A DNA stretch of 64,000 nt, from contig PMKN01000030.1 in the NCBI GenBank assembly GCA_003158675.1, positions 10,463 through 74,462 on the forward strand. The letters run 5' to 3'. Positions 11,035-61,556 of this stretch are shown here, piece by piece; position 1 is the first letter of the stretch, and every line of letters begins with the position of its first letter. This DNA is from Chloroflexota bacterium (GTDB taxonomy: Bacteria > Chloroflexota > Limnocylindria > Limnocylindrales > CSP1-4). The notes under the pieces were generated by a model. It was not told the DNA's origin and ran no database searches. It saw only the letters and a program-made list of their open reading frames with translations. Both the position numbers and the translations under genes were made by a program.

Positions 11035-13332
11035 ATGCGCCTGACCTTCGATCTGGAGCCTGGCGACGATCGTCTGTTCACGGACGAGTCGCTGGAGCAG
11101 ATCGAGCGGATCGAGCAAGGGCTGCTCGATCTCGAGCATGGTCAGGACCCGGGTGTGGTCAACGAGGTCTTCCGAGCGGCCCACACCCTCAAGGGCTCGG
11201 CGGCGACGATCGGGCACCGCCGCATGGCCGAACTCACGCACGCGATGGAGGATCTGTTTGGAGCCTTCCGCAGCGGAACCCTCAGCGAGCTAGGACCATT
11301 CGCCGACATCCTCCTCGCCACGATTGACGTTCTGCGAGCTCTCGTGGCCGAGGTCAAGGAAGGCGAGACGCTGACCGACGCGCCAGAAGCGCTGACTGCC
11401 GAGCTCCGCCAGTTGCTCTCCACGGCCACGGCCGCGGCGGCAGCCAGATCGTCGGCGAAGCCGGCGCCGATGGCCCGCGCGTCCATACCCGCCCCGCCGG
11501 CCCCTTCTCCCGCCACGGCCCTTCCGGCCGCGGAGTCACCGCCCGGCGCGGACCTCGACGAGCGGCCTGAGGACGGCATCACCAACATCGCCGTCGCGCC
11601 GCTGATCCAGCGGCTCCTGAGCGACGCCCCAGCCGGCCTGGAGCCGCGCTCGTTGTTCGTCTGCCGGATAGACCCAACCAGCGAGTGGCAAGCCGTCAGA
11701 CTGCTCCAGCTCGTCCTGGAGGTCGAGGAGACCGGTGCCCTGGCCGGATCCGTGCCGGGCCGCCAGGAAATAGAGAGCGGCCTCGGCTCCTCGCTGCTGG
11801 CCATCCTCGCCCGGGGCCGGCCGAGCGAACTGACTGAGCTACGCCGTCGCCTGGCCTCTATCGATGACGTCGTGAGCGTGGAAATGGTCGCAGCCCCGCT
11901 CAGCCCCGGTCAGGTCGACTCCTCGGAGATGGCGTGCAGCGTGGACCTCTACGGCCCCGCCGAGAGTGCGCCGATCACGGCCAGCCGCAGCGACGACCGG
12001 CCTGGGGCGGGCTCGCCCAGTCGGGACGGCCGCCAGGCCGAACCGGGCGCGGGGGTCGGCGGGCTTCCCGCCGGCGACCGGGCGGCGGCCGTGAGCGAGC
12101 GCATGAAGGCCGCCCAGCAGACCATCCGCATCGACGTCTCTCGACTCGACGAGCTGATGAACCTCGTTGGCGAACTGGTCGTGCACAAGACCAGGCTGCA
12201 GCGAAGCGCTCAGCAACTGGCAATTCGCCTCGGCGAGGATCCGCTCGCTCGTCAGGCGGAAGAGGACTGCCAGCAGTTCGCTCGCATCGCTGGCCAGCTT
12301 CAGGACCAGGTCACCGGCCTGCGCATGCTGCCAATCGAGACCGTCTTCAGCCGCTTCCCGCGCCTCGTGCGCGACCTTTCGACCAAGCTCGACAAAGACG
12401 TTCAGCTGGCCATGGAGGGCAAGGAGACCGAACTCGATCGCTCCGTGCTCGAGGAGGTCGGCGATCCACTCAGCCACCTGGTCCGGAACGCGATCGACCA
12501 CGGCATCGAATGTGCCGAAGAGCGCCGCGCCGCCGGTAAGCCGCTTCCGGGCACGGTCCGGCTCACCGCCCGCCACGCCGACGGGCGCATCCTGATCACG
12601 GTCGAAGACGACGGCCGCGGTATGGACCCCGCCGGGCTCCGGCGCGTCGCCGTGGAGAGAGGCCTGATGACGATCGATGCAGCCGATGCCATGAGCGACG
12701 CCGAGGCGCTGCGCATCATCTTCACGCCCGGCTTCTCGACCGCCAGGGTGGTGACCCAGGTTTCCGGACGCGGTGTCGGCATGGATGTGGTCCGCAACAA
12801 CATCGAACGCCTGGGTGGCTGGGTCGATATCGCGAGCACGCCCGGCGTCGGGACCATCGTCTCGCTATCGCTGCCGCTGACACTGGCGATAATCGGTGCC
12901 CTGCTCGTCAAGTCGGGCACCCGCGCCTGCGCTCTGCCTCTCACCGGCGTCGTCGAGACGCTTCGAGTCGAACCAAAGGCGTTCGGCCGTGTTCGCGGCC
13001 ACAACGTCCTGACGCTGCGCAACAGGGTCATTCCGATCGAGCAGCTCGACAGCGCCCTGGGCGACCCGCCTCGACCGTTCGCGACCAACGCCAAAGGTTT
13101 CGTGAACCTGGTCGTGGTTCGGTCGCGCGACACTGAGATGGCCCTGGCGGTGGATGCCTTCGTCGGCCAGCACGAGATCGTGCTCAAGTCGCTGAGCGGC
13201 GTGACCGGCCAGCGCCGTGGCCTGGCCGGCGCCACGATCATGGCCGACGGCGCGGTTGGCCTGGTGGTGGACATCGCCGCTCTGCTCGAGCGCAGCGCGT
13301 CCGTTGCGGCAAAGTCCGCCGCCGTCGCCTAA
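11035..13332 (+). CDS. cheA: Chemotaxis histidine kinase CheA
   Basis: 765 aa. Hpt (FRAAHTLKGSAATIG), a long Ala/Pro linker, dimerisation and ATPase domains (HLVRNAIDHGIE, EDDGRGMD, GRGVGMDVV) and a C-terminal CheW-like domain. Confidence 0.95.
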   Translation: MRLTFDLEPGDDRLFTDESLEQIERIEQGLLDLEHGQDPGVVNEVFRAAHTLKGSAATIGHRRMAELTHAMEDLFGAFRSGTLSELGPFADILLATIDVLRALVAEVKEGETLTDAPEALTAELRQLLSTATAAAAARSSAKPAPMARASIPAPPAPSPATALPAAESPPGADLDERPEDGITNIAVAPLIQRLLSDAPAGLEPRSLFVCRIDPTSEWQAVRLLQLVLEVEETGALAGSVPGRQEIESGLGSSLLAILARGRPSELTELRRRLASIDDVVSVEMVAAPLSPGQVDSSEMACSVDLYGPAESAPITASRSDDRPGAGSPSRDGRQAEPGAGVGGLPAGDRAAAVSERMKAAQQTIRIDVSRLDELMNLVGELVVHKTRLQRSAQQLAIRLGEDPLARQAEEDCQQFARIAGQLQDQVTGLRMLPIETVFSRFPRLVRDLSTKLDKDVQLAMEGKETELDRSVLEEVGDPLSHLVRNAIDHGIECAEERRAAGKPLPGTVRLTARHADGRILITVEDDGRGMDPAGLRRVAVERGLMTIDAADAMSDAEALRIIFTPGFSTARVVTQVSGRGVGMDVVRNNIERLGGWVDIASTPGVGTIVSLSLPLTLAIIGALLVKSGTRACALPLTGVVETLRVEPKAFGRVRGHNVLTLRNRVIPIEQLDSALGDPPRPFATNAKGFVNLVVVRSRDTEMALAVDAFVGQHEIVLKSLSGVTGQRRGLAGATIMADGAVGLVVDIAALLERSASVAAKSAAVA

Positions 13333-45869: not shown

Positions 45870-46733
45870 ATGCAAGCCGTGACCGCGACGCTGGCAGTCG
45901 AGTACGCGGGTTTGTCGGTCTCGGGTTGCGTACGAGACCACAACGAAGACCGTCTTGGCTGGACCGCCCTCGACGGCGACTCAGCGTTCGTGATGCCGGC
46001 CGAGGATTTCACCCTTGAACAAGCCGTGGCCACATCGGGCCAGGGTCTGGTCTTTGCCGTCGCCGACGGTCTTGGAGGCTACGGCGGCGGAGAGATTGCC
46101 GCGGGGCTGGCCGTCGCGGCGTGCCTGAACCGCACCCGGCAAGACGTATCGGGCGGAGGCGGTCGGCTCTCGGGAATCCTGCGCGCTGCCTTCAACACGG
46201 CCAATCAGGCCATTTTCGACGCCGCGCTCGGAGGCAGCGGCAGCCGCAAGATGCAATCCACCCTGAGTGCGCTGGCGATCACTCCGGGCGAGGCTCACCT
46301 TGCCCACGTAGGCGACAGCCGCGTCTACCGGCGTCATCACGGCGACCTGGAAATCCTGACCACCGACCACAGCCAGGTCATGGAGTTGCTCCGCCTCCAC
46401 ATCATCACGCCCGAGCAGGCGGTCGACCATCCGGCGCGTTATGCGCTCACCAGATCAGTCGGCGGCGATATCACAGTCCGAGTTGACATACGCACCGAAG
46501 GAATCGAGTCGGACGACGCGTTTCTCCTCTGCTCCGACGGGCTCTGGAGCAACGTGACAGCAAGCGAAATCGTCGAAGCGCTGGCCCACGCTCCCGCGGA
46601 AGCCTGCGACCGGCTGGTCAGGCTCGCCCTGGAGCGGGGCGGCGACGATAATGCGACAGCCATGGTCATCCGCGTGCGCGAGGCCGGGCAGCGGCCCGAG
46701 GCGCCGCAGGGATGGCGGAGGTTGTTCTCGTGA
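45870..46733 (+). CDS. PP2C-family Ser/Thr protein phosphatase
   Basis: 287 aa with VRDHNEDR, FAVADGLGGYGGGEIAA, LLCSDGLW and GGDDNATAMV motifs. Confidence 0.85.
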   Translation: MQAVTATLAVEYAGLSVSGCVRDHNEDRLGWTALDGDSAFVMPAEDFTLEQAVATSGQGLVFAVADGLGGYGGGEIAAGLAVAACLNRTRQDVSGGGGRLSGILRAAFNTANQAIFDAALGGSGSRKMQSTLSALAITPGEAHLAHVGDSRVYRRHHGDLEILTTDHSQVMELLRLHIITPEQAVDHPARYALTRSVGGDITVRVDIRTEGIESDDAFLLCSDGLWSNVTASEIVEALAHAPAEACDRLVRLALERGGDDNATAMVIRVREAGQRPEAPQGWRRLFS

Positions 46734-47722
46734 CCTCGACTGAGCTGACTCCGGGCGCGAAGATCGACCAGTTCACGATCGTCAAGGCGATCGGCTCGGG
46801 GGCGTTCAGCGACGTCTTCCTGGCCCAGGACTCGAGTGGCGCTCAAGTCGTCCTCAAGTGTCCGCACGAATCGATCATGGGCGACGTTTCGACCTTCGAT
46901 CGATTCCGGCGCGAGCTGGAGATCTCACGCCATCTCCACCACCCGGGCATCCAGCGTTCGCTCGAGTTCACGATGGACCGCAGCCGGCCATACATGGTCA
47001 TGGAGTACGTCGACGGCGAGACACTGCGTGCCTACATGACTCGCGAGAAGCGCCTGTCCGTCGATCAGGCGGTCGACTTCGGGCGGCAGCTGGCGGCGGC
47101 AATGGCCTATGCCCATTCTCAAGGCGTCTTCCACCGCGATCTCAAGCCCGAGAACGTGCTCGTGAACACGGAGGGCCAGCTGGTCGTCACCGACTTCGGG
47201 GTGGCCTTCATGGCCGGCGCCCGTCGGCTCACCTGGCGCTGGTTCTCGACTGCCCTGGGCACACCCGACTACATGTCGCCCGAGCAGATCCAGGGCAAGC
47301 GAGGCGATGCCAGAACCGATGTCTACGCCATCGGCGTCATGCTCTTCGAGATGCTGGCCGGACGCGTGCCCTGGGAGGGCGACAACGCTCTCTCGGTCAT
47401 GAGCCAGCACCTGAACGCGCCCGTACCGGCGCTCCACGAGATCAACCCGGCGGTACCACCGCCGATCGAGGGAATCGTTCGCAAGTGCCTGCGCAAGATC
47501 CCGGACGAGCGCTACGAGGACGCAGCCTCGCTGGAGAGCGACCTCGAGCGCTGGCGGGATCTGCCACTGTCCCAGTTCATCTTCGGCGACGAGGCGCCCG
47601 TGGCGAGCCGCGCCTCCGACCAGAAGCTCGTCCTGCTCATCGTCGGGATTAGCGCCGGCTTCCTGGCCGCCGCCATCCTATTCGTCCTAATCGCATACCT
47701 TCTCGTCCACGCCCACGCATAG
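46712..47722 (+). CDS. Ser/Thr protein kinase with C-terminal TM anchor
   Basis: 336 aa. Hanks motifs GSGAFSDVF, VVLKC, HRDLKPENVL, DFGVA, TPDYMSPEQ. C-terminal TM segment LVLLIVGISAGFLAAAILFVLIAYLLV. It overlaps the phosphatase gene by 22 nt. Confidence 0.9.
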   Translation: MAEVVLVTSTELTPGAKIDQFTIVKAIGSGAFSDVFLAQDSSGAQVVLKCPHESIMGDVSTFDRFRRELEISRHLHHPGIQRSLEFTMDRSRPYMVMEYVDGETLRAYMTREKRLSVDQAVDFGRQLAAAMAYAHSQGVFHRDLKPENVLVNTEGQLVVTDFGVAFMAGARRLTWRWFSTALGTPDYMSPEQIQGKRGDARTDVYAIGVMLFEMLAGRVPWEGDNALSVMSQHLNAPVPALHEINPAVPPPIEGIVRKCLRKIPDERYEDAASLESDLERWRDLPLSQFIFGDEAPVASRASDQKLVLLIVGISAGFLAAAILFVLIAYLLVHAHA

Positions 47723-47759: not shown

Positions 47760-49211
47760 ATGTCCGACAAGACAGGACTCACATCATCCGAGGAAACGCC
47801 CTCTGCCCGTCGCTCCAACGGAGGAGGTGGCGGCGGACCCGGCCCGTCCGACGACGCCCTCGGCGGCCTGGATCTGGACCGTCGGGCGGCGGAAAGGGTC
47901 ATCGCCGCGGCGCGCGAAGCCGGCATCCAGCAGGTCGAGCTCCAGTTCACAGACGTTACCGGGGCGGTGAAGACCGTAGCCGTGCCGGCGAGGCGCCTGC
48001 CCCATGTCCTGGCCGCGGGAGAGTGGTTCGACGGCTCGGCCGTGGAAGGGCTCGCCCGCGAGGTCGAGTCCGACATGTACCTGAAGCCGGACGCAACCAC
48101 CTTCGCGATCATGGAGCAGGCGGGCGGAGTGCCCTGCGCGAGGCTGATCTGCGAGGTCGTGACGCCGACCGGCGAGCCATATCCGGGCGACGGCCGCGCC
48201 GTCTTGCGCGGTCTGCTGGCCCAAGCGGAGTCGGCCGGGCTCAATTACCTGGTGGCGCCCGAAATCGAGTTCTTCCTCTTCCCACTTGGCGACGTTGTAG
48301 AACCGTTGCCTGACGACCCGAGCAGCTACTTCGAGCGGGCCCGCGGTCAGTCGCGCCAGGTCGAGTTGGAGATCGTGGCGGGCCTGGAGGCGATCGGGAT
48401 CCGTGTCGAATCCAGCCATCACGAGGTCGCCAGCGGCCAGTTCGAGCTGGATCTGCCGATGCTTCCCGCACTCGTTTCGGCCGACACCGTCACCACGCTC
48501 AAGTCCGCGGTCAAGGAACTGGCTCGGGTACGCGGGATGCAGGCCACGTTCATGCCAAAGCCCCTGGCCACAGCCGCGGGCTCAGGGATGCACACTCACC
48601 AGGTCCTGGTTGATCGTGCAGGACGCAGCGTCTTCGACGACCCGGCGGCGGATTACGGGCTCTCGGCCGTGGCCCGGGCCTTCGCGGCGGGCCAGCTTGA
48701 GCACGCCCCGGGGCTGTGCGCCCTGGTCGCCCCGCTGGTCAACTCATATAAGCGCCTGGTGCCGGGCTACGAGGCGCCGGTAGCCGGGAGCTGGGGACGC
48801 CACAGCCGTTCGGCTCTGATCCGCGTGCCCGCCCAGGTCCGCCAGGACGATCCCGCCGTCGATGTCTTCGAGACGCGCCTGGAGCTGCGGCTACCGGACC
48901 CGAGCTGCAACCCCTACCTGGCCTTCACCGCTATGCTCGCAGCGGGCCTCGACGGACTGGACCGAGGCTGCGAACTCGGACCGCCTCTCGAAGAGGTGGA
49001 GCACGGGTTCAGCGGCGGGCACAGCCTTACCAGGCCGCTCCCGGCATCGCTGGGCGAGGCCCTGGCGGCGCTCGAAGACGACGACGTGATCATGTCTGCG
49101 CTCGGGAGCGAGCTGCTCGAACTCTTCCGGTCGGCCAAGGGTCTCGAATGGGAGGCATACCGGCGCCAGGTCACGACCTGGGAAGTCGCCGCCTACTTCC
49201 AGCGCTCATAG
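47760..49211 (+). CDS. glnA: Glutamine synthetase (type I-like)
   Basis: 483 aa with ELQFTDVTGAVK, FDGSAVEG, FMPKPLATAAGSGMHTHQ, SWGRHSRSALIRVP and ELRLPDPSCNPYLAF. SD GGGAGGAA. Confidence 0.85.
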   Translation: MSDKTGLTSSEETPSARRSNGGGGGGPGPSDDALGGLDLDRRAAERVIAAAREAGIQQVELQFTDVTGAVKTVAVPARRLPHVLAAGEWFDGSAVEGLAREVESDMYLKPDATTFAIMEQAGGVPCARLICEVVTPTGEPYPGDGRAVLRGLLAQAESAGLNYLVAPEIEFFLFPLGDVVEPLPDDPSSYFERARGQSRQVELEIVAGLEAIGIRVESSHHEVASGQFELDLPMLPALVSADTVTTLKSAVKELARVRGMQATFMPKPLATAAGSGMHTHQVLVDRAGRSVFDDPAADYGLSAVARAFAAGQLEHAPGLCALVAPLVNSYKRLVPGYEAPVAGSWGRHSRSALIRVPAQVRQDDPAVDVFETRLELRLPDPSCNPYLAFTAMLAAGLDGLDRGCELGPPLEEVEHGFSGGHSLTRPLPASLGEALAALEDDDVIMSALGSELLELFRSAKGLEWEAYRRQVTTWEVAAYFQRS

Positions 49212-51975: not shown

Positions 51976-54900
51976 CTAGGTTTCGGTGCCGTCGTGCGAG
52001 ACGAAAGGCGTGGAATCCAAGGTCGCGCGGACCGCATCCAGCAGGGCTGCAACGCTGAATGGCTTGGGCAGGAATCGGGCGTCAGCGGGGAGGGCGGGCC
52101 CATCACCCTGACCTGCAAGATAGCCCGAGATGAAGAGCGTTCGAGGCGGTGTCACGCTGGCGGCCAGCTCCGCCGCGAAGGCCACACCCGACATCCCCGG
52201 CATCGTGACGTCGGACAGAAGCAGGTCCACGTTGGCCTGGTTGGCCGCCCACAGCGTCCGCGCTTCGACGACGTTTGCAGCGCAGAGGACGAGGTAACCT
52301 CGGTCGGTCAGGACTCGTTTCGCCAGGTTGCGGATGGCTGGCTCGTCCTCGACCAGAAGCACCGTCTCGGTGCCGGGGACAGGCTGCCCGACCGCAATCG
52401 CAGGTGCTTCTTCGGAGTCCTCGGAGGCTGGAAAGGTGAGCCAGAACCGGGTGCCTTGGCCGGGCTCAGACTCGACGGCGATGTCACCGGACGCGTTGCG
52501 GACGATCCCATATACGATCGAAAGCCCGAGCCCGGTTCCTCTGCCGATCTCCTTCGTCGTGAAGAACGGCTCGAAGATGCGACCCCTTACGTCGGCCGGC
52601 ATCCCGACTCCCGTGTCGGTCACGGCCACGAAGGCCAGCGCTTCAGGCGCGTTCGTATCCCGACTGAACGGTTCCGACAGTTGGGTGGATGCGGGGACCG
52701 GAGTCCCCGCCCCATCCGATCGTCGACCCGTCTCGATTGTCACAGAGCCGCCGTCGGGCATCGCGTCTCGGCTGTTCACGCACAGATTCACGAGCACCTG
52801 CTCGAGTTGAGTTGGGTCGATAAGGATGCAGCCTGCCTCGGGCCGAAGAACCGTTGCCAGCTGGATCGTGGGACCGAGCAGGTGCCTGATCATCGGGATC
52901 GCGCGGCCGATGCTCCCATTGAGGTCCACCATTCGAGCATTTGCCCGGGTGGGCTGGCTGAACGTCAACAACTGCCGCGTCAGTTCGGCTGCCCGGTCGG
53001 CAGCCCTGACGATCTCCTCGAGATCGGTGGCCTGTTCGGAGGTGCCTGGTTGCGCCGCCTTGGCCAGTTCAGCGTAGCCGTGGATAGCCTGCAGCAGGTT
53101 GTTGAAGTCGTGAGCGATGCCACCCGACAGCTGACCCAGCGTTTCCATCTTCTGCGACTGGCGAAGCTGGCCGGCCCGGACCTGAAGTTCCTCGATCAAC
53201 CGGGAGACCTTGAGGGCGCCGCTGATCTGTTCGCGTAAGGCCTCATAGGTCAGCCCGTCCAGGGGCCCCATCTCGAAGATCGCGTGGCCGAAGCTCTCGT
53301 CCTTGAAGAAGAGCGGCTGCACCACCATGGCGTAGGTCCGGTCCGTGGGCATCAGTCCATCCGGCGCGAAGGCATCGGCGGTGTGGCTGTGGAGTCGCTC
53401 GAGAGTGCCCGGGTCTCGGCCAGGATCGTACGCGAAGTCCACCCGGGGACCGGAGGCATGCCCGTTGTCGAGTACGAGGTAGGCGCTCGGAATGCCGAGT
53501 CGCGGCAGGCACTCGCGGAGGGCTTCGCCGAGGGACTCGAGATCGAAAGCCGCGCTCAGCGTCTCGGCCGTCTCGGAGAGCGCCCGAGTCCGGCGTTCGA
53601 CGATCAGACGATGCTGAGCCTGCGTGTGATCGACGGCGTCGCCGATGGTGAGCCGTACCTCTTGAAGGAGGTCCTCGGCGCGCGAACGCATCGATGGGTC
53701 AGCTGCGAGGCAGGGCATCAGCTCGCGCCTCAGCGCGGACAGTGCCGGCTGCCAGGCAGTGCCCGATCCACCAGCGTGCGCTACGTCCTCCAGAAGCGCG
53801 TTGACCCGTTCGGTGAAGCGGTGGGGCGCACCCCGGAGTTCAGCAATCAAGGCATCGAGCAGGCCTTCCTCCCAGCCCTCCGGGATCCCCGCCAGCAGAC
53901 CGCTGACAGACGCTCGCATGGCCTCGAGCATTCGGGAACGGCGGAGCCGTAGGGCCTTGTCGACGGTGATCTCCGACCCAACGTCGGTCGACGCCGGCGG
54001 CAAGCTGCTCGCCAGGGCAACATTGCGTGCGTCCGGATTGCAGCCGCAGCTGCGGCGAATGACCAGCTCGGTGGGGAGGACCACGATGTCGTCCACCGGC
54101 TCGCCGCGAAGCCGCCGCACGAGGGTCTCGACGGCAATGGCGCCCTGCCTCTTGAGCGGCTGGCGGATCGTCGTCAGGGGCGGTGTGGAGTTGCGAGCCT
54201 CTGGGATGTCGTCGAATCCGATGATCGCCACGTCCCGCGGCACACGGATGTCGCGGGCACGTAACGCGTCGATCGCGCCGAATGCCATCCGATCGTTGGC
54301 AGCGATGATCGCGTCGAAAGACTCACCCCGCTCGTCGAGCAGGAGGCGGACCGCATCAACCCCGCTCTCGTACTTGAAATCCCCGGTCACGACCAACGAA
54401 TCGGACCTGGGGAGCCCGCGACTGGCCAGCTCCTCGCGGTATATGCGTAAGCGAATGCGCGCTTCGATATTGCCTTCTGGCCCGCCGACGAACGCGATGC
54501 GTCGATAGCCGTGATCCTCGACCAGATGCCTGATCGCTTCTCGAAGGGCCGGGGCGCCGTCGATCAGGACGCTGTTCATCCACTTGACTTCAGCGGCCAG
54601 GCTGGCCATCGGCAGCGGACGGAAGCGCTCGCAATAGCGAGCCTGGTCGTCCAGGCCACGGTAGTTGCCAACCGTGGCCACGACTATGAGCGCATCGATG
54701 CCCTTGCTGCCGGCAAGTTGGTACACCGCGTTGCGTTGTTCGCCGAAGCGCGTCGGCGCATGTAGCGAGGCTCCCACGAAACACACAAGATTGACGCCGC
54801 GCTCGCGGGCGGCCTCGACCACACCCCCGACGCGGAGTTCCTCATCTTCGAGCCAGTCGACCATTACGCCGAACGTGGGGGTGCGAGCCGGTGGCTGCGA

Positions 54901-55029
54901 CGCGGGCGGAACCTTCACTTCAACCGGACCCTCATCCGAGTTGCTCCTGGCGTCGCGGGCGAGACTCGGCCAAGCCACGCGGCACTCTGGTGCCGGCCCG
55001 CCCGCCTGGCGGGCTCTGAACTGGATCAT
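51976..55029 (-). CDS. Soluble hybrid sensor histidine kinase with N-terminal LacI-type (PBP type 1) ligand-binding domain and C-terminal receiver
   Basis: The N-terminal ~300 aa have the LacI/PurR ligand-domain order without an HTH (FGVMVDWLEDE..., GYRRIAFVGGPEGNIEARIRLRIYREEL, AIIAANDRMAFGAIDAL, DVAIIGFDDIPEA, LTTIRQP). A central unknown region follows. Then come HisKA (LGQLSGGIAHDFNNLL), HATPase (NLCVNSRDAM, DTGVGM, GTGLGLS) and REC (VLLVEDEPAIR, LLLSDVTMPGMSG). The start is uncertain: ATG 55029, GTG 55077 or an internal GTG. No TM segment. Confidence 0.85.
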   Translation of the reverse strand: MIQFRARQAGGPAPECRVAWPSLARDARSNSDEGPVEVKVPPASQPPARTPTFGVMVDWLEDEELRVGGVVEAARERGVNLVCFVGASLHAPTRFGEQRNAVYQLAGSKGIDALIVVATVGNYRGLDDQARYCERFRPLPMASLAAEVKWMNSVLIDGAPALREAIRHLVEDHGYRRIAFVGGPEGNIEARIRLRIYREELASRGLPRSDSLVVTGDFKYESGVDAVRLLLDERGESFDAIIAANDRMAFGAIDALRARDIRVPRDVAIIGFDDIPEARNSTPPLTTIRQPLKRQGAIAVETLVRRLRGEPVDDIVVLPTELVIRRSCGCNPDARNVALASSLPPASTDVGSEITVDKALRLRRSRMLEAMRASVSGLLAGIPEGWEEGLLDALIAELRGAPHRFTERVNALLEDVAHAGGSGTAWQPALSALRRELMPCLAADPSMRSRAEDLLQEVRLTIGDAVDHTQAQHRLIVERRTRALSETAETLSAAFDLESLGEALRECLPRLGIPSAYLVLDNGHASGPRVDFAYDPGRDPGTLERLHSHTADAFAPDGLMPTDRTYAMVVQPLFFKDESFGHAIFEMGPLDGLTYEALREQISGALKVSRLIEELQVRAGQLRQSQKMETLGQLSGGIAHDFNNLLQAIHGYAELAKAAQPGTSEQATDLEEIVRAADRAAELTRQLLTFSQPTRANARMVDLNGSIGRAIPMIRHLLGPTIQLATVLRPEAGCILIDPTQLEQVLVNLCVNSRDAMPDGGSVTIETGRRSDGAGTPVPASTQLSEPFSRDTNAPEALAFVAVTDTGVGMPADVRGRIFEPFFTTKEIGRGTGLGLSIVYGIVRNASGDIAVESEPGQGTRFWLTFPASEDSEEAPAIAVGQPVPGTETVLLVEDEPAIRNLAKRVLTDRGYLVLCAANVVEARTLWAANQANVDLLLSDVTMPGMSGVAFAAELAASVTPPRTLFISGYLAGQGDGPALPADARFLPKPFSVAALLDAVRATLDSTPFVSHDGTET

Positions 55030-55139
55030 CGATGATTCCAGACGAAAGTCCGGTTGTATATGGCCCGCAAGGATCACCCCACGCGCAGCAGGACGTGGAT
55101 ACGGAGCCGGCCGACTGGCGGGCAGATCCGTCCAAGCCT

Positions 55140-57731
55140 TCAGGCGGCCTTGCTGGACCGTCGGCCGCGAGCTGCGACTGCCGCAGGCTCGGCCTCATCC
55201 GAACCAGACGAGTCGAGACTGGCCTCGGCATCGTCGCTGGTGAGTCTGAACCGAGCCGTCGCACCTTCGAGTTCCCGCGCGATGACGGTCAGATCGTGGG
55301 CCGCGTCGGTCACTTCCTGCACCTGCCGCGAAACCAGGTTGGTTGACGAGGCCACCCGCTCTGCCGACGCAGCGTTCTCCTGAGAGAGAGCGGCCACACT
55401 CTCTACGCTCTCGAGGGTCTCGCGGATACCGCCGGCCGCCATCTCGGACCTGTGCATGTTGGCCGTGATGACGTCCGAAACGCGCTCGATCGCCGAAGTC
55501 AGATCGCCCATCACACTGGCCACGGCCTGGTTGGCGCTGGCCATCTCGCCGGTCTGCCGATGGGTCGTCTTGGCCGATTCGAGCAGCTCGTCGAGGGCCT
55601 GGCCGGAGTGCTGGGCCAGGGATGAGCCGTCGTGCACCTTCTGCATCGCGACGTCCATCGCCTCGGCGGCCCGCCGGGCCGTCGCCTGGACGGTGGTGAT
55701 GATGGCGCCGATCTCCTTGGTCGCCGCGGCCGACTTCTCGGCCAGCTTGCGGACCTCACTCGCAACCACGGCGAAGCCCCTACCCTGGTCACCGGCTCGG
55801 GCTGCCTCGATCGCAGCGTTCAGAGCGAGCAGGTTAGTTTGGGCGGCGATGTCCTCGATCGCACTCAAGATCTCGCCGATCTGCTGCGCCCGGGCGTTGG
55901 TCTCCTGAATGGTGGCTGCCGAGGAGTCGACCGCGTGCTCGATCGACTTCATCTGTTCCAACGTCTGGCGGATCGCGTCGGACCCGCGCTCGGCCGTCGC
56001 CACGGCCTGAACCGTGGAGGCGACCACGGTTTCGGAACTCGAGCCTGCAACCTCGACGGCGTCCGAGATATGCGCCGCAGCCTGAGACAGCCGCTCGGCG
56101 GCCTGTGCCTGGTCGCGGGCGCCCGTCGCAATCGCATCCACCGATTTGGCGATCCGTTCGATGCTGGCATTGGCGCGCGTCATCGCCGCGGCTTCGGTCG
56201 TTGCCGACTCGGCTATCTGCGAGATGTTCGCCGCGATCTGGTGGGTTGCGGCCCCGGAGGATTGGGCGGAACTCGCCAGGCCGTCGCTCACTTCCAGGAG
56301 CTTCTGGGCCCGATGCGAGAGCTGATCCATCAGGCCGCGCAGACTCGACGACTCGGAGTTGAAGGTCGCAACCGGCACTCCCTCGGCGACGACGCGGTTG
56401 AGGCTGGCGACGAGGCCCGTGTCCAGGATCATGGTGGAGATTGCGTCGTAACCGTCGTGCGCGAGCCGCTCGATTGCTGCCGCGCGGATGGCCAGGTCGA
56501 AAGAACCGCTGGGCTCGGGGACGATCCATTCGGCCTCGGCGTTGAACGATCGAAGCTCCTGGGCGGCTGCGACCACGCCGTCGCGGACGGACTCCCAGAA
56601 CGGCGCGTCCTCCAACCCCAGGACCGCGATGCGGATGCGGCTGGTGGCGGCCCTCATCGGCCGGGGGCGTCGTTCCGCCATCGCCGCCGATTCGATCGAG
56701 CCATGGCCGGCCTGCCAGAACTGGTCGATATTGGCCGGGGTGACCAGGTCGCTCTCGGTCAGCAATCGCGACCTGGGCGGCTGCCAGCCGGCGACCAGGT
56801 GGTTGAACAGGTGGATCACCGGATCGTGGCCCTGGGCGTACGGGTCCTGCCCGATCGTGGCCGTGATCATGCCCTTGGCGACGTAGGGCATCGCCTCGTC
56901 CATGATGTCGTGGCTGATGATGGTCACCTTGCCGACCAGGCCGGCGTCGGCCACGGCTTGAGCCGCCCCCGCGGCCCCGACGGTGACGTAGATACCGGTC
57001 AGTCGCGGATGGCGCTTGATGGCCTCGGCCGTCACGGCGCGCATGCCGGCCAGGTCGTATGGGCTTTCGACCGCGGCCACGATCTCCACGCCCGGGTACC
57101 GTTCGTGCAGCATCCCTTCGAAGCCCTTGCGACGAATCTCCAGGCCGAGGTGATGGAACGACGCGGTCATGACGAGGACCTGACCCTTGCCATTGAGCGC
57201 TCGCCCCATAGCGTCGCCGCCGGTTCGGCCCTGCAGATAGCCGTCCGGCCCGACGAAGAACAGGCGCCGGCAGGCCTCGTCCGTGACGCGGTTGAGCTGC
57301 ATCGCGCTGTCGCCGAGCCGGGCGCCGATATTTCCGATTCGCCTGCCCAGCCGTGTGACCTCGGCCGTAGCCGCAATCGAGACCGAGCTGACCTGTGGCT
57401 CGAGCTTGCGGGTCAGGTCCCCTTCGGCAACCGCGGCCAGCGCATCAGACAATGCCTCCGTCTGCGTCTCGGCCAGGGCGACTGTGACCTGAGTGAGTCG
57501 CCCCAGCGGGCGCGCCACGGTGAACAGATACATCGTCCAGGTAATGCCCCACCCTAGTGCCACACCCAATCCCAGGACGGTCGCGGCGGAGCCCACGGGT
57601 AGGCCTGCGATCGCGGCCAGGGTGCCCGCGGCCATACACGCGAGTGCCAGTCCCAGACCCGCGAAGATCCCGCGGCTGACAAGCACGAGACGAAGTTCGG
57701 AGAGGCTTAGAGCTGAGTTTCGGCGTGGCAT
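55140..57731 (-). CDS. Methyl-accepting chemotaxis protein with membrane hairpin, HAMP-like linker and cytoplasmic PBP type 1 (sugar-binding-protein-like) domain
   Basis: The signalling domain is canonical ([40 protein letters not shown]). Two N-terminal TM segments have almost no periplasmic loop. ATG 57731 (SD AAGGAA) is preferred over TTG 57752. See the findings for the permuted PBP lobes. Confidence 0.9.
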
Positions 57732-57838
57732 GCTGTTCCTTGGTGGACGCAAACCTATCCGGGTCCTTGGCCTTGTTCCGATCGCCGCGGCCGGCGCCGA
57801 TCGGCTCGGCTCCCCGCAAGCAGGGAGATGCCTTGGTG

Positions 57839-57899: not shown

Positions 57900-60800
57900 C
57901 TAAGGGCGGGGTTCGGCGGCCAGCTCGATGAACCGGCAGAGGGCATTGGCAAGCCGCATCTGGCGGGGAGTGCGGGCGCGGACTCGGATGAGCGCCGGGC
58001 TCGCGACCACCGCGGCCAGACAGCGGGCGCGTGAGGTGGCAACGTTGAGCCGGTTCAGGCTGTAGAGGAACTCCATTCCGCGAGGTGCATCCTCCGGCCC
58101 GGACGTCGCCATCGAGTAGATGGAGACCGGAGCCTCCTGGCCCTGGAACTTGTCGACGGTACCCACCCGCGCCTCAGGCACCCGCCGCCCGATCTCGGCA
58201 ACCTGGGCGTTGTACGGGGCGACGAGCAGCACATCCGCCCAGGTCACCGGGCGTGACTCTCCGTCGGCGTCCGTCCACGCGGCGCCGCCCCCCGCAAGCT
58301 CGTGGGCGACCCGCGCGACAACCTCTGCCTCCTCGGGCGACTGGCTGGTGTTTCCGCCGTGAGTTACCGGAACGAAGCGGACGCCCGTGCCAGAGAGAGT
58401 GCCAGAAGACTTGAGGTACTGATTCTTCAAACCTGGCAGGGACGAGAGACGGCCTTCGTAGAACGTCTCCGAAGTGAAGCGGCACAGATCCGGATGGAGG
58501 CGCCTGGTCCGCTCCAGGAAGAGGCCGCGGTCCGGGGGCATCGTGGACTCGTCGCCCAGCACGTGGCCGAGCGCGGATGCCTCCGCGCCTGGCGGATGGG
58601 TTCCCTGGAGCGGCTGATCCAGCTGAGCCGGGTCGCCCAGGAGGACCAGGCCGCTGGCAGCGGGAGCGACAGCCACCGCGTTTGCGAGAGAGAACTGGCC
58701 AGCCTCGTCCACGACGAGGACGTCCATTCGTCCGGCGAAGTCGAGCCGCGACCAGACCCAGGCCGTTCCACCGACCACGTCGAGTTCGCCGGCGTCAATC
58801 GCGCCGAGCAGCGCGACGTTGGTTCGATACGGGACGGCGGCGCCAGAGCTGCAGTCACCGGCTTGATCGGTCTTCTGGCCGATCCTAACCGTGAGGCCGC
58901 GCTCCCGTGCACGCGCCGCCACCGAATCCAGAAGGTTGCCGATCACCTGGTGGCTGTTGGCCGTGACCCCGACCCGTCGCCCTCGCCGCACCAGCTCGAC
59001 GATCGTCGTGGCGCCGAGGTGGGTCTTGCCGGAGCCGGGCGGCCCCTGAACGGCCAGGAAGCTCCCGTCCAGCCTCTCGGCGAGCCGCGCGGCTGCGGAC
59101 GACGAGTCTTCCTCAGGCCGGCAGAGGGGTTCTCCGGCCGCAGCTGGCCCCGCGCGCAGAAGCAGCCGGCGGGCCGCGGCATACTCGCCCGTCCCATGGA
59201 TGCCGTGTTGGGCGACCCACTCGCCGACGCGCATCAGGCTGTCGCGGAGTGAAGTCGTAGGCACATGCCCGCTCGGCACCAGGGACGTGAGGTGCGGGCC
59301 GTCCGTCTTTGGCCCGCGCTTCAGATCGAGCGTGCCCGCCCCGAGATCCAGCGCCACCACGCTCCCCGGCGACCGTCCGGTGACGGGGTCGCAGACCTCA
59401 GTGCCAACCTCGATGGCGTGCTCCTGCTCGGGGTAGCGATACCGATACACGGTTGAGCGCGCTGCCTGGCCGACCGGCTCGACCAGCGTCAGCCCGCCGA
59501 TCGGCTCGCGCTCGGCTATTCGTTCCTCGTCAGTCAGGTCGTTCATGAGGTAGAAGAATCGCCACCAGAACGCCTTCTCCTCGCGTCGATGCCAGTTCAG
59601 CAGCTGAGCCAGCAGCCAGCGGGCGTGCTGTTCGGGCGTGCGATCCGTCTCCACCTCGGGAACGCCCGAGCGCAAGACGTCCGCCACCTCCGAGAGGTGG
59701 GCAAGTCGCTCCGACAGCTCCTGCCCCGCGTCGGGCTGGGCCGGTGAGGGGCGCGGCAGTGGTTCGCCGGTACGGGCGGCAAGCTCGTCGCGACACCCCT
59801 CCAGCCAATCGCGCAGCCGCCAGTTCGAAACGCAATCGTCGCGGTTGTAGGCCTCGATGCTGCGCAGCGTCGCGTCGGTCCACGGCGAGCGGCCCAGGGC
59901 CGCGCTGCCGGTCTCGGGCGAGCCGCCATCTTCCGTCTCGGCCAGCCAACTCTCGAACGCCACGATGCTCGAACCGGCGTCGCGCAGGCTTTCCTCGCGC
60001 GCGAGCCCGTAGAGCGGCTCCAGCTTCTTGATGGAGTAGCTCTCGACGGATGCGCGCAGGCCCTGGCGAACGGCGCGGAACAAGTCCACGAAGACCTTGC
60101 CGCGCAGGAGTTTGTCCACCTCCTCCTCGCGAGTGGCATGGCGGCCCATCAGACGCCCGGCCGCCGTCGGCTCGTACGGCGCGTAGTGGTACACGTGGAT
60201 CTCGGGGTCTCGGGCGAGGCGATCCATCATGAGGTCGACGGCCTGCTCGAAGGCCCGCTTCTCCGAATCGCGCGTCACCTGGCCGCGCTCGTCCACCGCC
60301 CAGAATGCGTGGAAGAGTGGCTCGCCATCCGGCCCGACCGAGCCCGGCTCCAGGATGCCGAAGAGGTATTCGACCCCGTCGTCCAGCGCGAAAGGGTCGC
60401 CCTCTATGTCGAAGAAGAGGTCTCCCGGCCGTGCCGGCGGAAGGCTCGTCAGGCCGCGGTTCGGCTCGAGGCTGCCGTCGGGCAGCCGGTGTGGCGGCAG
60501 CAACTCGTAGATCGTGCGGCCCAAGTCCTGGCCTCGGACTTGGATGGCGGCCTGGTCGCGGCTCGTGCGCAGGACGCCCGCGCCAACCTCTGCCAGCGGC
60601 TCCGCGAGCGGCAGATCTAGACCCGCCAGGCCGCGCCTCGTCGCCACTCCCCTGCCTTTCAAGGCTCGCCGCACCCGGTTCGATGCTCCGGCCACGAGCG
60701 AGAGGTCGTCGTCGGCACGGCGGCGCGCGGCGCAGACCCGGCTCCAGCGACAGACGTCGCAGTGCTCCACCGGCTCGGGATAGGTTCCTAGCGGCGGATA

Positions 60801-61451
60801 GGCGGCAGCGGCGAACCCGCCACCGGCCCCGACGCGATCCTCGAAGGCCGCTTTGACCATTCTGTAGTAGGCGATGTAGTCGGCGACCCGATGGCTCTCG
60901 ATCGTCCGGGCGCTCCCGCCCAGGGCGACGGACATACGCTCCGGCTCGAAACCCTGGATCGCGGTCAGCTGTTCCACGTAGGAACAGATCTGAAGCAATG
61001 CGGAGGCTTTCACGTGGCGAGCGAGCTTCGTGTCGACGACTTCGTAGCTCCACGGGCCCAGGCGGCTCGGGTTCTCCACTCTCACCAGGAAGTCCGCCAG
61101 CCCGAGCCACCTGCCGTCGAAGAATGTGGCCTGGTAGATCACTTCGTCGCCCCGCTCTATCGCGTCCCGGGTCTCCTTCGCGGCGACTTCGAGGCGAGTT
61201 CGCCGGTCCGGCAGCGTGGAATCCTCCACGATCCGGGTCACTCGACGGCCTGCTTCCTCCAGGCCGGCTAGGTAGCGCTTCTCGTGTTCATCTCCCCGCT
61301 TCGCGATCAGATCCATCTCGGGGTCGAGGCGTTCTGGCTTCGCGACGAGCCCGGCCAGGGCAGCCAGCTCCAGCCCGACCAGATGCTCGCAGGCCAGGAA
61401 TCCGACCAAGTCGGTTGCTGCAAAGACAGGCTGCCCATCAATGAGCTGCAT
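57900..61451 (-). CDS. RecB-like PD-(D/E)XK nuclease / RNase-H-fold exonuclease-like / SF1 (Dna2-Upf1-type) helicase fusion protein
   Basis: Nuclease: FLACEH...YEVVDTKLARH...LLQICSYVEQL and C-x2-C-x5-C (HCDVCRWSRVC). Middle: LFFDIEGDPF...HVYHYAPYE...YNRDDC. Helicase: Walker A GPPGSGKTH, Walker B VLVVDEAGQ, LLGDPAQL, VDKFQGQE, NVATSRAR. Start set at ATG 61451 (MQLIDGQPVF); GTG 61535 is an alternative. Confidence 0.85.
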   Translation of the reverse strand: MQLIDGQPVFAATDLVGFLACEHLVGLELAALAGLVAKPERLDPEMDLIAKRGDEHEKRYLAGLEEAGRRVTRIVEDSTLPDRRTRLEVAAKETRDAIERGDEVIYQATFFDGRWLGLADFLVRVENPSRLGPWSYEVVDTKLARHVKASALLQICSYVEQLTAIQGFEPERMSVALGGSARTIESHRVADYIAYYRMVKAAFEDRVGAGGGFAAAAYPPLGTYPEPVEHCDVCRWSRVCAARRRADDDLSLVAGASNRVRRALKGRGVATRRGLAGLDLPLAEPLAEVGAGVLRTSRDQAAIQVRGQDLGRTIYELLPPHRLPDGSLEPNRGLTSLPPARPGDLFFDIEGDPFALDDGVEYLFGILEPGSVGPDGEPLFHAFWAVDERGQVTRDSEKRAFEQAVDLMMDRLARDPEIHVYHYAPYEPTAAGRLMGRHATREEEVDKLLRGKVFVDLFRAVRQGLRASVESYSIKKLEPLYGLAREESLRDAGSSIVAFESWLAETEDGGSPETGSAALGRSPWTDATLRSIEAYNRDDCVSNWRLRDWLEGCRDELAARTGEPLPRPSPAQPDAGQELSERLAHLSEVADVLRSGVPEVETDRTPEQHARWLLAQLLNWHRREEKAFWWRFFYLMNDLTDEERIAEREPIGGLTLVEPVGQAARSTVYRYRYPEQEHAIEVGTEVCDPVTGRSPGSVVALDLGAGTLDLKRGPKTDGPHLTSLVPSGHVPTTSLRDSLMRVGEWVAQHGIHGTGEYAAARRLLLRAGPAAAGEPLCRPEEDSSSAAARLAERLDGSFLAVQGPPGSGKTHLGATTIVELVRRGRRVGVTANSHQVIGNLLDSVAARARERGLTVRIGQKTDQAGDCSSGAAVPYRTNVALLGAIDAGELDVVGGTAWVWSRLDFAGRMDVLVVDEAGQFSLANAVAVAPAASGLVLLGDPAQLDQPLQGTHPPGAEASALGHVLGDESTMPPDRGLFLERTRRLHPDLCRFTSETFYEGRLSSLPGLKNQYLKSSGTLSGTGVRFVPVTHGGNTSQSPEEAEVVARVAHELAGGGAAWTDADGESRPVTWADVLLVAPYNAQVAEIGRRVPEARVGTVDKFQGQEAPVSIYSMATSGPEDAPRGMEFLYSLNRLNVATSRARCLAAVVASPALIRVRARTPRQMRLANALCRFIELAAEPRP

Positions 61452-61556
61452 GACCCCACCATAGCGCCCATCGATGACAGCTCGCCTGTCACGCCTGTCC
61501 GCCGGTACCGCCTTGTTGGCGTTGCCTGCTGCCACCGCATCTAAGGGAGATCCCTC

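Follow-up and report, generated by a model that had tools for sequence, protein, structure and literature searches.

How a binding protein of the kind that catches ligands outside the cell could come to form the cytoplasmic sensor of a chemoreceptor is the question raised by a gene on the minus strand (55140..57752) of a 64,000-nucleotide stretch of a Chloroflexota bacterium genome (contig PMKN01000030.1, positions 10,463 to 74,462), hereafter the window. The gene is one uninterrupted open reading frame (ORF) encoding 870 aa, in which two transmembrane (TM) helices are followed by a HAMP-like linker of ~75 residues, a Peripla_BP_4 domain and the long signalling hairpin of a methyl-accepting chemotaxis protein (MCP). 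The original prediction, made from the DNA letters alone, had proposed that the type-I periplasmic binding protein (PBP) domain of this receptor is circularly permuted and placed in the cytoplasm. The analysis reported here indicates that the product is probably a chemoreceptor anchored in the membrane whose permuted domain, of the CUT2 type, senses a small molecule in the cytoplasm; a free monosaccharide or a close derivative is the likeliest ligand.

Permuted order of the binding-protein domain

Peripla_BP_4 (PF13407) matches the receptor in two stretches at 119.5 bits (E 2.5e-34; cut-off 35.1 bits). The better of the two, residues 159-310, corresponds to profile positions 91-245, and residues 381-470 correspond to positions 8-92, with E 1.7e-8 when residues 361-490 are scanned separately. 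Positions 91-245 precede positions 8-92 and therefore the C-terminal two thirds of the profile come first in the receptor. When residues 373-472 were placed ahead of residues 163-346, the re-joined construct gave a single collinear Pfam match over profile positions 9-246 (148 bits) and a nearly gap-free alignment with residues 3-254 of the Thermotoga maritima glucose-binding protein (tmGBP; 2H3H/2QVC) at E 8e-28. In the native order only the C-part of tmGBP, chain residues 97-256, is matched (E 1e-21). The canonical collinear order of CUT2 type-I binders, consisting of N-lobe β1-5, the C-lobe and the return, is not followed by the receptor, and the permuted rather than normal lobe order that had been predicted is borne out, collinearity being recovered only after re-joining. 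Because the exit and entry of the receptor align precisely at one junction in tmGBP, reading ...IPVVTLDTDSPDSGRYVYIGTDNYQAG, the permutation cut is assigned by alignment to the loop between strands β4 and β5 of the N-lobe.

The first piece of the permuted PBP (residues 159-346; 56715..57278, minus strand) aligns with 2H3H residues 100-254 and is modelled at a predicted local distance difference test score (pLDDT) of 83-98. It contains the entry motif (T157..C161-R-R-L), N-lobe β5 (FFVG), hinge 1 (PDGY), the entire C-lobe, which contributes R207, D282 and Q302 to the pocket, and the helix and strands of the native C-terminus. This segment had been equated with the second lobe, which is correct for the C-lobe but omits β5 of the N-lobe and the native C-terminal tail, both of which the piece also holds. 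A new linker of ~25 residues (residues 347-371; 56640..56714, minus strand) joins the ancestral C-terminus to the ancestral N-terminus. The linker has no counterpart in canonical-order proteins, is modelled as part coil and a short helix, and is variable in sequence yet present in all members of the family. The second piece (residues 372-467; 56352..56639, minus strand) aligns with 2H3H residues 3-99, displays four strands in the model and comprises the N-lobe from β1-α1 to β4, the pocket residues F385, W386 and N465 and the exit motif N-S-E; what had been called the first lobe is N-lobe β1-β4. Both segments lie within one codon of where they had been placed, with FFVGPDG running from residue 165 (nt 57260), IRIAVL from residue 373 (nt 56636) and ...ATFNSE ending at residue 467 (nt 56352). 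The ~60 residues assigned to the interval between them divide into ~35 that belong to the native PBP tail and ~25 that constitute the new linker between the old termini.

An artefact, be it an assembly error, two partial binding-protein genes fused by a frameshift or a chance resemblance, would have nothing to recommend it beyond the oddity of the order. It is opposed by the uninterrupted ORF, by the Pfam E values of 2.5e-34 and 1.7e-8 and by the recurrence of the same order in >300 close homologs and ~120 divergent cluster representatives from independent assemblies, isolate genomes included, through which this explanation is already refuted and its probability is negligible.

Predicted fold and relation to other binding proteins

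The AlphaFold2 (AF2) model of the domain alone (residues 150-480) has a mean pLDDT of 89.3 and a predicted template modelling score (pTM) of 0.86. A model of residues 80-520 computed with 42 homologs gives pLDDT 85-97 for the binding-protein part, while the flanking helices are poorly defined, as expected for a monomer model. Along its chain, the model of the domain alone begins with one strand and five strand-helix units of the C-lobe, continues with two short return strands and the linker, and closes with four strand-helix units. The two pieces are predicted to fold as one compact bilobed domain, with a modelled cleft lined by Asp, Arg, Asn and Gln residues together with aromatics, as in CUT2 binders. 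Foldseek, a sequential aligner, returned type-I sugar-binding proteins as the sole kind of match when the model was searched against the PDB. Canonical binders align over 183-205 columns, with a root-mean-square deviation of 1.7-3 Å and a query-normalised template modelling score (TM-score) of ~0.5, while TpMglB-2 reaches 356-395 columns and has, at 0.59, the highest query-normalised TM-score. Such a pattern is as expected for a permutant. Structure prediction had been proposed as a check on the permutation, and in the model the two pieces do assemble as one PBP fold. The new N- and C-termini are likely to lie side by side, as judged from the known N-lobe strand order 2-1-3-4-5-6 rather than from coordinates.

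TpMglB-2 (Tp0684) of Treponema pallidum is a circularly permuted glucose-binding lipoprotein, termed 'Type Ic / Cluster Bc' (PDB 5JX2, 6BGC), in which three N-lobe strands have moved to the C-terminus with a break before β4; this arrangement needs an extra inter-lobe crossover and still binds ligand (PMC4990184). It is the sole described permuted member of the type-I PBP fold, its first N-lobe strands are relocated C-terminally as in the receptor, and no other kind of PDB entry aligned with the receptor model across both lobes. In contrast, four strands have moved in the receptor domain, with the break at β4/β5, and TpMglB-2 is a stand-alone extracellular lipoprotein of an ATP-binding cassette (ABC) transporter whereas the receptor domain is in-line and cytoplasmic. 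Since the break points differ and the identity is 12-14%, without a phmmer match at E <=0.001, whereas canonical binders match at E 1e-21, the two permutations are probably independent.

The nearest canonical relatives of the receptor domain are binders of glucose, galactose, xylose and arabinose, at 26-31% identity. These CUT2 proteins, which include tmGBP (2H3H), GanP, AraP and E. coli RbsB and MglB, belong to the same Pfam family, become collinear with the receptor after un-permuting and have the same core pocket residues, but are secreted and stand-alone and retain the canonical order, while the receptor domain is neither secreted nor lipid-anchored. RbsB and MglB also feed chemotaxis, although by docking onto the periplasmic domain of Trg and not as part of the receptor.

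PDB entry 5ER3, a solute-binding protein of Rhodopirellula baltica from structural genomics, is apparently also circularly permuted, at a break point different from those of the receptor and TpMglB-2. Its chain residues 76-225 align with receptor residues 266-419, and residues 2-149 of the re-ordered construct align to chain residues 184-326. Foldseek aligns this entry over 250 columns, more than the canonical proteins, and it may share the link of the old C-terminus to the old N-terminus.

Membrane anchor and cytoplasmic location

Kyte-Doolittle hydropathy (19-residue windows >1.6) places TM1 at residues ~28-50 (57603..57671, minus strand) and TM2 at residues ~56-79 (57516..57587, minus strand), separated by a loop of ~5 residues (LPVGS), in agreement with the two closely spaced TM segments and virtually absent periplasmic loop noted before. 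The start codon is uncertain and may be the TTG at 57752 or the ATG at 57731 (M8). The public gene call (P0001, 831 aa) apparently begins at M40 (window position 57635), inside TM1, and would remove TM1. Homologs of ~862 aa align over the receptor N-terminus, TM1 included, and together with the conserved N-terminal pattern they support the longer ORF starting at 57752 or 57731.

The HAMP-like linker (residues 80-158; 57279..57515, minus strand) reads RPL...(helix)...GDLTRKL...(helix)...QLNRVT. It is a unit of ~75 residues with Pro-Leu, GDLT and FNxxT motifs, compared with ~50 residues for the two-helix parallel coiled-coil unit of HAMP proper. The AF2 monomer model gives the linker two helices at low confidence. 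Its G-D/N-L connector and FNxxT end are kept family-wide and across output types, G111 is invariant in an 85-member alignment with a mean column identity of 21%, and the FN of the entry motif resembles the end of HAMP helix AS2. A precomputed HAMP match is present in one homolog (P0112), while residues 86-164 of the receptor match PF00672 (HAMP) at E 0.034 and 14.9 bits against a cut-off of 25. HAMP identity of this linker, described earlier as HAMP-like, is weakly supported, the profile match staying below the cut-off.

The signalling hairpin (residues 468-840; 55233..56351, minus strand) begins with an exit helix that runs into the coiled coil and has its tip at D655. MCPsignal (PF00015) matches residues 607-761 (nt 55470-55934, minus strand) at 139.3 bits against a cut-off of 34.6, the conserved hairpin-tip motif of MCPs is present, and the signalling part matches 2ch7 at E 4e-23.

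Topology was examined in 217 family members having both PBP pieces and the signalling domain. Hydropathy revealed no hydrophobic TM segment between the PBP domain and the signalling domain in these members, nor in the receptor itself. Two N-terminal TM segments are found in 129 of them, one in 63 and none in 24, and where there are two the median distance from TM2 to the domain is 82 residues. No signal peptide or lipobox is present in the receptor. Because an even number of TM helices precedes the domain, which is contiguous with the signalling domain with no TM segment between them, the PBP domain is assigned to the cytoplasm, as had been predicted, and a periplasmic location is effectively excluded on these sequence grounds. 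An extracytoplasmic domain, acting like a tethered periplasmic binding protein, would fit a Pfam family dominated by secreted proteins and the extracellular lipoprotein nature of TpMglB-2, the sole characterised permuted relative. It would, however, have to accommodate two preceding TM helices, a signalling domain that is contiguous with it and must contact CheA/CheW, the lack of TM segments between the domains in the 217 members, the members without any TM segment and the missing signal peptide or lipobox, and is accordingly very improbable. Hydrophobic windows around residues ~247 and ~441 of the receptor were rejected as TM segments, both being core strands of the globular domain; similarly, the windows flagged among the 217 relatives are domain core strands or Ala-rich coiled coil.

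Entry and exit junctions

The entry motif FNxxTxxPCxRLxYVGxD and the exit motif (V/I)xTxNSEPxSLRxL (NSEPxSLRxL) are among the best-conserved parts of the family, whatever the output domain, and T157, R163, G168, D170, G175 and E467 are invariant or nearly so in the 85-member alignment. The exit helix begins two residues past N465, and the entry strand runs straight into hinge 1 (D170). Between the exit motif and the hairpin tip (D655) the spacing takes few values: among 127 members it is 188 residues in 101, 185 in 2, 163 in 9 and 160 in 15. The 188- and 160-residue classes are four heptads apart, and the distance co-varies with the length of the C-terminal arm (r = 0.86). This quantised spacing shows the exit helix to be where the signalling coiled coil begins, in register. 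By its sequence context the domain sits at the point where HAMP helix AS2 would normally pass into the methylation helix.

These junctions suggest how the domain might work. The cut would put the new termini on neighbouring strands near the cleft, allowing in-line splicing where AS2 meets the methylation helix, and the permutation may exist because it brings the termini together beside the cleft. When ligand binds and the lobes close, the exit helix could be displaced or turned against the HAMP-like bundle of the dimeric receptor; the movement would reach it directly, by way of the N465-E467 loop and hinge 1, or through a shift of the two dimer N-lobes against each other as in LacI. The change in the exit helix could travel down the coiled coil to CheA/CheW, biasing flagellar rotation, and the biological role would be the report of an already imported sugar, that is, transport- or metabolism-coupled taxis.

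Other sensors resemble parts of this arrangement. Receptors of the Aer2 type (HAMP-PAS-HAMP) and of 'class III' topology carry a cytoplasmic sensor between or after HAMP units. Like the present receptor, Aer2-type proteins are membrane-anchored or soluble MCPs without a periplasmic domain, with the sensor in-line upstream of the signalling hairpin; in contrast, their sensor is a PAS domain, with naturally adjacent termini, and the sensor here is a PBP that needed permuting. In the LacI/GalR repressor cores, which are cytoplasmic and dimeric, and in the periplasmic Bacteroides hybrid two-component sensor BT1754 (PDB 2X7X, a Foldseek match), a type-I PBP is likewise covalently tied to an output. 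These proteins differ from the receptor in their canonical order and in having the output at one terminus, with no in-line insertion.

Distribution and output domains of the family

A word-indexed search returned >300 homologs at 43-100% identity, all with PF13407 and PF00015 in the same order; those with names come from Candidatus Limnocylindrales or from Chloroflexi metagenome-assembled genomes. A HMMER scan of 1.84 billion cluster representatives (50%-identity clusters) with residues 150-480 as query gave 167 matches at E <=1e-30. Domain order was classified by local phmmer in 149 (P0121-P0269) of the best 150 of these 167 matches. The permuted order together with an MCP domain is displayed by 99 of the 149, and a further 22, mostly fragments, have the permuted order with no MCP domain detected. 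Ordinary binding proteins of ~350 aa in canonical order account for 16, and in 12 the order is not assignable, with one piece detected; these 12 are mostly fragments but include a 1075-aa histidine kinase (P0168).

In full-length proteins for which the local scan gave no MCP domain, outputs were assigned by Pfam as GGDEF (P0125), HisKA-HATPase-REC-AraC (P0168), SpoIIE/PP2C (P0200) and AraC helix-turn-helix (HTH; P0156 and P0196), and P0158 has the architecture MASE11-PAS-domain-MCP. All six have the same entry and exit motifs as the MCP members. The TM segments, HAMP-like linker, permuted PBP and exit helix are best described, from this sequence distribution, as a portable input module, found mostly on MCPs. 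P0156 and P0196 are predicted membrane-anchored transcription factors of the AraC type, with N-terminal TM segments, a HAMP-like linker, the permuted domain and a C-terminal AraC HTH; each would then act as a membrane-tethered one-component regulator.

Species-representative genomes were searched with a pattern derived from a 4-sequence alignment, and 80 loci were taken. The domain was found in Chloroflexota, Bacteroidota/Ignavibacteriota, Fibrobacterota, Acidobacteriota and Spirochaetota, at least six phyla in all, and isolates carrying it include Rosettibacter primus 4148-Me and Rarispira pelagica 38H-sp (WP_420068731.1). The search pattern also caught ordinary binding-protein/ABC operons, which make up six of the 80 loci (roughly L072-L080), and the sole Bacillota locus (L072) is probably that of an ordinary binding protein.

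Binding cleft and probable ligand class

The pocket was mapped from a sequence taken to be that of E. coli RbsB, in which the expected letter stood at each of the eleven known pocket positions, an internal check, and was then read in the 85-member alignment. In RbsB, D89, R141, N190 and D215 are critical pocket residues and S103-V106 forms the hinge (PMC5557919). The aromatic pair F15 and F16 of RbsB corresponds to F385 (F in 64/85 members) and W386 (W in 63/85, F in 14/85) of the receptor, while the ribose-contacting D89 corresponds to N465 (N in 70/85). The remaining positions retain their residues, with D104 at D170 (D in 79/85), R141 at R207 (R in 83/85), D215 at D282 (D in 80/85) and Q235 at Q302 (Q in 68/85). 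Variation is seen at tmGBP K9, which contacts glucose O4 and maps to L379, a variable position across the family, and at the position of RbsB N190 and tmGBP Y190, which is V258 here and E or D in most members. By the alignment, the canonical sugar pocket appears maintained with clade-specific tuning. On account of the nearest relatives and the pocket chemistry, a neutral monosaccharide or a close derivative is the likeliest ligand class, this being the weakest step of the explanation.

The domain could instead be a true sensor of some other signal, such as a phosphorylated or modified metabolite or a protein partner, as HPr-Ser-P is for the CcpA core, and the receptor would in that case be a gauge of metabolic state. 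The LacI family does include cytoplasmic PBP1 cores for very diverse effectors, the specificity positions vary (K9 to L379; N190 to V258, E or D in most members), and sugar-transport or catabolic genes are not conserved beside the receptor gene. Against such a signal, the Arg/Asp/Asn/Gln and aromatic-pair signature of monosaccharide pockets is conserved, the nearest sequence relatives all bind neutral monosaccharides, and an extra basic cluster for phosphate was not noticed in the sequence, which was read without three-dimensional analysis. This alternative is rather unlikely, though it carries the most weight among those considered.

That the domain binds nothing, serving as a structural, dimerisation or spacer element while the TM/HAMP part or other proteins do the sensing, is less probable still. 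Orphan or degenerate domains are common in MCPs, and the HAMP-like part is also highly conserved, with G111 invariant. The pocket residues, however, are among the most conserved positions of an alignment whose overall column identity is low, the module occurs on five different outputs, as is typical of input domains, and a periplasmic loop of ~5 residues leaves no other sensing surface evident.

Several points weigh against sensing of a cytoplasmic sugar by a HAMP-linked permuted domain. The profile match hints only weakly at HAMP identity for the linker. The structure is a predicted one, in which the proximity of the termini, the open or closed state and the dimer geometry follow from type-I PBP topology. 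Two specificity positions (L379 and V258) are hydrophobic in this clade, so that clades may not share one ligand, which could be something other than a plain hexose. For every member, the ligand, its binding and the role in taxis are deduced from sequence. Free sugars are, moreover, one class of cytoplasmic PBP1 ligands, and LacI-family cores also bind sugar phosphates, nucleobases and proteins. All-against-all clustering of the genes at the 80 loci gave no recurrent neighbour beyond lineage-specific synteny, and the context holds no hint of the ligand.

A cytoplasmic monosaccharide sensor, the reading preferred here, would have wider consequences. The components are known already, namely cytoplasmic sensors in MCPs, PBP1 cores that act as sensors and a single permuted PBP1, and the combination, the break point and the modular spread appear to be new. 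Searches of open-access full text for a chemoreceptor with a permuted or cytoplasmic binding-protein domain led only to the TpMglB-2 paper and to reviews of solute-binding proteins treating free binding proteins, although an earlier description is possible; NCBIfam has no dedicated model for the permuted-domain family. The original prediction had regarded the layout as without a characterised counterpart, which agrees with the open-access literature searched, but the layout is not peculiar to this genome, given a family in at least six phyla that extends to non-MCP outputs. It can be put forward tentatively, as a proposal about as apt to fail as to hold and perhaps slightly more so, that the permuted PBP is an unrecognised and widespread class of cytoplasmic input domain with a permutation of its own, independent of that of TpMglB-2, that enabled in-line splicing, and that bacteria of at least six phyla use it to steer motility, cyclic di-GMP synthesis, phosphorelays and transcription by the intracellular pool of imported sugar. 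Classic extracellular ligand catchers, which reach chemoreceptors by docking from outside, would here have been rewired through permutation as an in-line intracellular sensor. If true, the sensing of imported sugar would constitute a route to transport-coupled chemotaxis independent of the phosphotransferase system (PTS), and if the ligand is an imported sugar it would offer a direct route for internal-sugar taxis and regulation in bacteria with ABC importers that lack PTS-based taxis. The permutation would also be a natural answer to an engineering problem, in that binding-protein termini on opposite faces hinder insertion into reporters, and the fixed entry and exit helices make the module an attractive biosensor scaffold. 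With five output types and many uncultured lineages represented, the module may be useful for annotating signal-transduction repertoires.

Genes surrounding the receptor

The window holds a flagellar and chemotaxis region at 564-35384 that encodes FliG, FliF, CheA, FliD, two flagellin-family genes, FlgK, a sigma factor, FlhA, FlhB, FliP, FliN and FliM. CheA (11035..13332, plus strand) has Hpt, H-kinase_dim, HATPase_c and CheW domains and is the presumed downstream partner of the receptor. From CheA and the flagellar gene set the organism is therefore taken to be motile and chemotactic.

Directly upstream of the receptor gene lies a gene for a 1211-aa protein with RNase H-like and SF1 helicase parts (AAA_11, AAA_12, AAA_30; 57900-61535, minus strand). 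This helicase gene is syntenic in seven close relatives, which share the order helicase, MCP, aldo-keto reductase and an ORF of no assigned function. No conserved ABC-transporter neighbour of the receptor gene was found among the 80 loci and the syntenic relatives, and one distant member is located among other signalling genes.

Immediately downstream is a gene for a hybrid histidine kinase of 1033 aa (51976-55077, minus strand). The kinase has a canonical-order LacI-type core (Peripla_BP_3, E 3e-34), ~280 residues without assignment, HisKA, HATPase and a receiver; a TM segment is not evident in its translation by eye, and it may be a second cytoplasmic PBP-based sensor at the locus. The kinase was considered as a partner of the receptor and rejected: it is missing between the MCP and the aldo-keto reductase genes in the seven syntenic relatives, and its position is treated as coincidental. 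In one relative (L010) a 64%-identical copy of the kinase lies upstream of the receptor gene. Farther along the window, a pair of genes for a PP2C phosphatase and a Ser/Thr protein kinase (45870-47722, plus strand) is followed by glutamine synthetase at 47760-49211.

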